Source: Octopus vulgaris (Eukaryota). From it: a DNA stretch of 64,000 nucleotides. Below the pieces are notes generated by a model. It had not been told where the DNA came from. It saw only the letters and a program-made list of their open reading frames with translations, and searched no databases. The position numbers were made by a program, and so were the translations under genes. The stretch is taken from positions 37,386,001 through 37,450,000 of the forward strand of contig OX597819.1 in NCBI GenBank assembly GCA_951406725.2, written 5' to 3'. Below, piece after piece: positions 40,070 to 40,284 of this stretch; positions within the stretch are counted from its first letter, which is position 1; every line of letters starts with the position of its first letter.

Positions 40070-40284
40070 TATTAATAGTTATCGCCAAGCTAATATGGCA
40101 GTCCATAAATATAGGACGAAAGCTACTGTTGATTAGCTCCAAGAGGCCATCACCTCTACCTAATCAACGGCAACTTTCGTCCTATATTTATGGACTGCCA
40201 TTTTAGCTTGGCAATAACTTTTAATTTTCAGTACCGCTGCCGTGGTCTCCTTTAGAGAGACTTAGTAATAATAATATTTCTACT
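40070..40284. mobile_element. Retrozyme-like subfamily B, truncated head-to-head inverted copy lacking the hammerhead
   Basis: 12-bp TSD agtgttgtgtgg at 40058-40069 and 40285-40296; homologous to 16110-16200 and 15847-15897. Confidence 0.8.

Follow-up and report, generated by a model that had tools for sequence, protein, structure and literature searches.

The segment at 40070-40284 of the window (the whole 64,000-nt stretch of DNA that was analysed) is a 215-base insertion, the stump of an abundant 361-base non-coding repeat. This insertion, here called E2, is a two-armed copy of that ORF-less repeat with a hammerhead motif, bounded by a target site duplication (TSD). It was very probably copied in trans by the reverse transcriptase (RT)/GIY-YIG enzyme of a Penelope-like element (PLE), as the analogy with the anole PLE enzyme suggests. 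The repeat unit, its motif, the TSDs, two fixed 3′ ends lying 56-59 nt apart and the microhomology joins can be read directly from the DNA, and from these we infer the enzyme and the form of the template.

Two insertions with the same pair of 3′ ends

E2 consists of an inverted and a forward arm, the 3′ ends of which are referred to below as site 1 and site 2. Its features are as follows.

40058-40069 (+): left TSD copy, 12 bp, an exact 12-mer
40070-40162 (-): inverted arm, 93 nt, 5′-truncated, its left-facing 3′ end lying at site 1; corresponds to monomer 16109-16201 with 91% identity
40160-40162 (no strand): arm-arm microhomology at the inversion point, 3 nt (4 nt with one mismatch)
40160-40284 (+): forward arm, 125 nt, which passes site 1 (40226) and stops at site 2
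40227-40284 (+): 'tail' from site 1 to site 2, 58 nt, 51/58 identical to the tail of the second insertion, E1
40285-40296 (+): right TSD copy, 12 bp, an exact 12-mer

The probability of finding an exact 12-mer by chance within ±5 of both E2 ends is approximately 3e-5. The target site is G/T-rich, and the hammerhead motif of the family is absent from 40070-40284 itself. A short tandem duplication at 39868-39945, approximately 120 bp upstream of E2, has a few bases in common with this target site. The same 67 nt are present in both arms of E2, which differ from each other at 7 of these 67 positions. Because three substitutions relative to E1 are common to both arms, the two arms come from one sub-lineage.

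The second insertion, E1, occupies 15737-16200 and contains the hammerhead motif.

15723-15736 (+): left TSD copy, 14 bp, an exact 14-mer that differs from the E2 TSD
15737-15808 (-): inverted arm, 72 nt, comprising 10 nt before site 1 plus the whole tail; it ends at site 2 plus 3 extra bases, facing left
15807-16200 (+): forward arm, 394 nt, slightly longer than one 361-nt monomer, which ends at site 1
15848-15849 (+): point of a 39-nt deletion that removed the upstream copy of site 1
15989-16029 (+): type I hammerhead motif (stem I 15989-15993/16025-16029, core U3-A8 15994-16000, stem II 16001-16004/16011-16014, GAAA)
16201-16214 (+): right TSD copy, 14 bp, an exact 14-mer

The arms of E1 are joined through a 2-nt microhomology at 15807-15808, and its forward arm runs in the order tail, rod-like region, hammerhead and site 1. 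By blastn, E1 and E2 are the sole family members within the window, where they are 88-91 per cent alike; no relative that could stand for a 'subfamily A' was found in the window, and no empty site was seen for either TSD-bounded copy (12 bp in E2, 14 bp in E1).

In both inserts, the 3′ end of one arm lies at site 1 (16200-16201), and that of the second arm at site 2 (15896-15898). The 40070 end of E2 corresponds to 16201 of E1 and its 40284 end to 15898, the position at which, with 3 extra bases, the 15737 end of E1 also lies. Site 1 is placed at either 16200 or 16201 because the first base of the TSD is also the next base of the element. The sequence-only reading of this DNA had described E2 as an insertion independent of E1 that reuses the same two termini, neither of them at the ribozyme cleavage site. 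The independence of E2 is borne out by its 12-bp exact TSD, which differs from the 14-bp exact TSD of E1; the reuse is confirmed in that both pairs of ends agree within 0-3 nt; and the predicted hammerhead cut, after 16024, indeed lies away from the termini, with site 1 located 176-177 nt and site 2 234 nt downstream of it. The spacing of ~65 nt given there has to be corrected to the measured 56-59 nt. With the hammerhead strand as sense, all four ends are outward-pointing 3′ ends, as had been stated, whereas an insert with two opposed arms cannot meaningfully be called 'flipped'; E1 and E2 differ in which arm is the longer.

The chance that a second insertion would reuse both ends within ±3 nt is 7.5e-4 over the 361-nt unit, and 0.026 if ends are restricted to its AT-rich positions (61/354). 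Both sites are A/U-rich.

Termini in public sequence runs

Four of the 24 public runs listed for the family were aligned to 15825-16230 at 80 per cent likeness: three DNA contig sets (X1, X2 and X12, representing organisms A, B and E) and a single run of raw RNA reads. The three organisms contributed 3555, 4788 and 2133 contigs, and the RNA run 431 reads out of 12.9 million; neither contig numbers nor summed depth equal copy number. X12 is the safer replicate, since the best-matching DNA sets may include the source of the window. The results on loose ends refer to the rows listed (24 of 786), beside which minor end positions are possible.

Among these rows, long flanks of mixed sequence begin at site 1 (16201) in all three DNA runs: in 62 contigs of X1 (median 144 nt, agreement 0.47), 74 of X2 (73 nt, 0.46) and 52 of X12 (44 nt, 0.50). 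At site 2 (15897), the rows listed include 20 contigs of X2 with mixed flanks (median 214 nt, agreement 0.50) and 13 reads of the RNA run (54 nt, 0.69); this site is thus seen in one of the three DNA runs and is weaker than site 1 (20 vs 74). The other 3′-side rows listed lead into element sequence (agreement 0.69-0.95), with read-through into the tail in 27, 37 and 28 contigs at 16205 and in 33 RNA reads at 16200, and variant continuations at 15941 and 16164. No further AT-rich stretch carries mixed flanks among the rows listed (24 of 786). The proposal of two preferred 3′ ends is upheld by this histogram of termini, in which mixed flanks occur, among those rows, at site 1 and site 2 only. 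Site 1 is also the end of the element sequence in the reference, which concentrates loose ends there; ends and read-throughs were separated by their letters. The ratio of site 1 to site 2 is unusable as a priming ratio, given that site 2 is blurred by a run of T after 15896 and by the shortness of the upstream piece (51 nt).

The outward inverted arrangement recurs in a 565-nt contig (X12, record 15), and the rows listed include one joint between opposite strands. The family flanks at 16201 are AT-rich and, in organism E, lie close to a TA run, which suggests an insertion bias for TA microsatellites. One of the three substitutions common to the E2 arms, 16150 A>T, marks a real sub-lineage, being present in 56 contigs of X1, 74 of X2 and 2 of X12. 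In the region of the E1 deletion (bin 15825-15838), X1 and X2 each have the depth of a single contig, and X12 has none; the 39-nt deletion is therefore private to its locus. In the RNA run, the library of which is unsuited to small circles, there is no place where many molecules begin or end, and reads are equal in both directions. Two pattern scans of metagenome contigs for the family gave no match.

The 361-nt unit and its hammerhead motif

A joint from 16205 to 15847, with 2 letters between, is present in all three DNA runs and closes a unit of 361 nt with a GC content of 45 per cent. Its sense strand has no ORF longer than 57 codons. Contigs among those listed (records 1, 9, 16 and 19) run from the tail through the hammerhead towards site 1, so that no ORF intervenes, and in many contigs the hammerhead follows the tail within approximately 95 nt. 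The RT + GIY-YIG ORF that lies between the repeats of an autonomous PLE is accordingly absent from the unit. The forward arm of E1 has a predicted fold well beyond that of shuffled sequences (z -5.72, 0/100 shuffles).

Helix III of the hammerhead motif has, in most copies, 1 bp with a palindromic loop (C at 16019), as described for metazoan type I motifs, and two different palindromes occur among the copies represented by loose ends. The core of the E1 motif is U3-A8 instead of C3-G8, and no variant row falls at these columns among the 40 of 194 rows listed; U3-A8 may thus be the family state. Such a core has been described in Schistosoma PLEs, according to the accessible text of PMC4209133. 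Variants change in step across the runs at two column pairs of the motif. At the stem I column pair 15990 C>T/16028 G>A, the two variants reach 40/40, 40/45 and 75/91 per cent of depth in the three runs, and at the stem II pair 16002 A>G/16013 T>C they reach 33/49, 28/33 and 69/85 per cent, all of these being unphased values. A search against Rfam gave no hammerhead match at the gathering threshold, and its three sub-threshold matches (E 0.38-4.7) are chance matches.

One copy longer than the unit (E1) and the head-to-tail joint are present, and no piece with two hammerheads occurs among the 24 rows listed (10803 more exist). Judged by its sequence, the unit is retrozyme-like: it is non-coding, 361 nt long and multi-copy, and it carries a type I hammerhead motif.

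Predicted fold around the two sites

The forward arm of E2 is the only natural contiguous copy of both sites. Its predicted fold (125-127 nt) is moderately significant (z -2.64, 2/200 shuffles), and short pieces of it fold no better than shuffles (z -0.4 to -1.4). In the model, upstream sequence pairs with the beginning of the tail to form the closing helix of a multi-branch loop, after which come two tail hairpins. Site 1 is predicted to lie in an unpaired A/U linker of the multi-branch loop, with site 2 at the base, on the 3′ side, of the last hairpin in the tail. The hairpin that had been singled out earlier, as a putative guide of twin priming flanked by the two sites, is the following.

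40244-40262 (+): predicted 6-bp stem with a 7-nt loop, inside the tail

This hairpin does lie between the two sites, but it is one of five predicted helices. Of the common variants listed for this region, those in loops or linkers comprise four substitutions and three indel rows, and two others lie just upstream of the closing helix. Variants at 15875 and 15876 complete the stem of the hairpin at 40244-40262, and those at 15891 and 15892, found in the RNA run only, would break the last hairpin. The placement of variants is compatible with a conserved fold, as modelled, without singling out one hairpin.

Other features of the window

The window is repeat-rich DNA of animal type, with microsatellites and remnants of LINEs and PLEs. 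A remnant RT + GIY-YIG Penelope-like ORF lies at 33602-34519 (-) beside microsatellites, with best relatives 47-48 per cent identical. At 61270-61500 (+), a short, degraded ORF contains a Cys motif as well as a YVYIG motif and has no Pfam match; we take it to resemble a PLE endonuclease. A lone hammerhead-core-like motif with a 4-bp stem II, at 14950-14995 (+), is unrelated to the family by blastn.

A TIR (MITE-like) family is represented at 28774-29427, 18785-19211, 26360-26748, 38107-38530, 42455-42901, 46742-47169 and 36223-36955, and two MITE-like elements carry short telomere-like tandem repeats centrally (29070-29093 and 36511-36640). At 13294-14835, inverted arms of 455 bp, 92 per cent alike, surround 633 bp, and no TSD of at least 9 bp was found there. 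The inverted repeats at 13294-14835, 28778-29427 and 36223-36955 were considered as relatives of the family and rejected; they look like TIR DNA elements and have no match to it. A perfect 97-bp inverted repeat is found at the window start (1-342), a 5S rRNA copy at 6743-6861 (-) adjoins a long TA microsatellite, and there is a tRNA match at 43892-43963 (-).

Mechanism of insertion and alternative explanations

If the anole PLE enzyme is taken as the model, the template, an RNA carrying the unit in tandem or as a circle, would be bound near its tail, and both strands of the target DNA would be nicked 12-14 nt apart. Each 3′-OH would then start reverse transcription inside the RNA at one of the two fixed sites; such starts would need neither an RNA end, nor the ribozyme cut, nor homology to the target. 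Both cDNAs would stop early, anneal via 2-4 complementary bases and be repaired; the product would be an inverted insert flanked by a TSD, one arm of which carries a tail. Priming on both strands is likely, because the anole PLE enzyme nicks and extends both of them, and to this extent the twin priming put forward in the sequence-only reading stands. It does not stand in the L1 sense, since the arms of E2 repeat the same 67 nt. Because the sequences of the arms overlap, the process would require either two copies of the template or successive copying with displacement, and it would not be L1-style twin priming in the strict sense. RT + GIY-YIG PLE remnants are present in the genome; as candidates for a partner PLE, those in the window gave no blastn match to the 361-nt unit.

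A more specific form of this mechanism, in which both arms would be made on one circular retrozyme RNA and each nicked strand would be assigned one start site, seems to us unlikely. The long cDNA of E1 would have started at site 1, rounded the 361-nt circle once and hopped exactly over its own priming point, the locus-private 39-nt deletion being one that spans site 1. If true, this course of events would explain why the tail is at one end only, and E1 would be a genomic footprint of a PLE enzyme reverse-transcribing an animal circRNA by the rolling-circle route. However, E1 is a single case, and a simple deletion between microhomologies on either side of a hairpin would also account for the 39 nt that it lacks. 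Moreover, the anole enzyme has no strand difference in start site in the accessible part of PMC11167929, and the mixed-end inserts (2/2) are not significant.

It is quite improbable that an autonomous PLE left these copies as stumps (solo pseudo-LTRs), with E1 as its one-off internal deletion and no self-propagating 361-nt family. E2 holds the 3′ end only, as a truncated autonomous PLE would leave, and contig depth in the last 150 nt greatly exceeds that at the hammerhead. Nevertheless, the stretch between tail and hammerhead is covered by many different contigs in three organisms (76, 83 and 49 at 15954; records 1-4, 9-11 and 16-19), no listed loose-end row leads from site 2 into common sequence (agreement 0.50), and the sense strand is without any ORF above 57 codons.

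Twin priming of the L1 type, in which a LINE enzyme would have copied a single linear RNA and the pairing of A/U runs with T-rich nicks would have fixed the two ends, would account for the inversion with microhomology and the 12-14-bp TSD, which are the usual marks of that process, and also for A/U-rich sites and AT-rich family flanks; LINE RT remnants are present in the window as well. We consider it very improbable, given that the arms repeat the same 67 nt, that no poly(A) or simple-repeat tail is present, that end peaks occur at only 2 of many AT-rich positions among the rows listed, and that the E2 target is G/T-rich, while the hammerhead type and the tail point to PLEs. The two shared ends could finally have been inherited from one master copy, with E1 and E2 produced by duplication and rearrangement at the DNA level, as the presence of just two copies in the window, 88-91 per cent alike, might suggest. 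This explanation is barely credible: the TSDs, flanks, inversion points and arm lengths all differ, and it is largely refuted by the public contigs, dozens of which have unrelated flanks at these positions while dozens more continue into the element. We retain insertion in trans by a PLE enzyme as the most likely explanation of E2.

Comparison with known systems

In L1 twin priming, the first primer uses the poly(A) end, and the arms are copied from separate stretches of a single RNA that do not overlap. The family shares with it priming from both nicked strands, as proposed here, a microhomology-joined inversion and a TSD. It differs in that both of its presumed starts are internal and fixed, its arms overlap (67 nt), and there is no poly(A) or simple-repeat tail.

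The closest parallels are found among PLEs. Arkhipova (2013; PMC3846280, available text) described inverted pLTRs with a 9-bp TSD and a 31-bp tail on one arm, together with mobilisation in trans by pLTRs. According to the accessible text of Craig (2021; PMC8557442), a 30-40-bp tail at one end plus an inverted copy is typical of PLEs, the tail often being at one end only. For the anole PLE in vitro, the part of Frangieh (2024; PMC11167929) at hand reports that the tail is the gap between two internal RT start sites, that both strands are nicked and extended, that ribozyme cleavage is not needed and that the enzyme prefers AT-rich sites. PMC8969392 and PMC11722881, likewise in their available portions, were also among the literature compared. 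Like PLE insertion units, both window copies have a 5′-truncated inverted arm with outward 3′ ends and a TSD (12 and 14 bp, where ~8-14 bp is expected). In both, the extension of one arm equals the distance between two fixed 3′ ends, which recurs in the peaks at 16201 and 15897, and the ends lie past a type I hammerhead rather than at the point where it cuts. Unlike PLEs, the family has a unit of 361 nt without an ORF, and its tail is 56-59 nt long as against the published 30-40. Relative to the anole PLE, as given in the same portion of PMC11167929, the family ends lie 177 and 234 nt past the cut site, whereas the first anole start lies ~85-92 nt past it; the presumed start region is A/U-rich instead of A/C-rich; and the G/T-rich target of E2 departs from the preference of that enzyme for AT-rich sites.

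Animal retrozymes were defined, and PLE partners proposed for them, by Cervera and de la Pena (2020; PMC7229834) and by Li, Clavereau and Pollet (2026; bioRxiv 10.64898/2026.07.22.740005). In the accessible parts of these two reports, the link between retrozymes and PLEs is drawn from co-occurrence and pLTR phylogeny and not from tail or inversion signatures. The family resembles animal non-LTR retrozymes in its non-coding unit within the range of 170-400 nt, its GC content of 45 per cent, its tiny palindromic helix III and its strong self-pairing, as well as in a TSD of more than 4 bp, copies longer than the unit and a proposed PLE partner. It differs from them in that no two-hammerhead tandem array was seen among the pieces listed, and in that its self-cleavage and its circular RNA are putative.

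The element works like a PLE pLTR and not like an autonomous PLE; the mechanism is already published for PLEs, and the family itself is new. As far as we searched the open-access literature, the family, its longer tail and the presence of the tail signature on a retrozyme-like unit are new, and the argument that this tail and inversion signature ties retrozymes to PLE enzymes was not found there. A PLE tail and inversion signature on a retrozyme-like non-coding unit amounts to evidence, at the level of integration, that PLE enzymes move animal retrozymes. For the RNA that probably acts in cis, the family reduces the candidate stretch to ~125 nt in which two start sites are mapped, and this small substrate would serve to study how a PLE enzyme picks the internal positions at which it starts.
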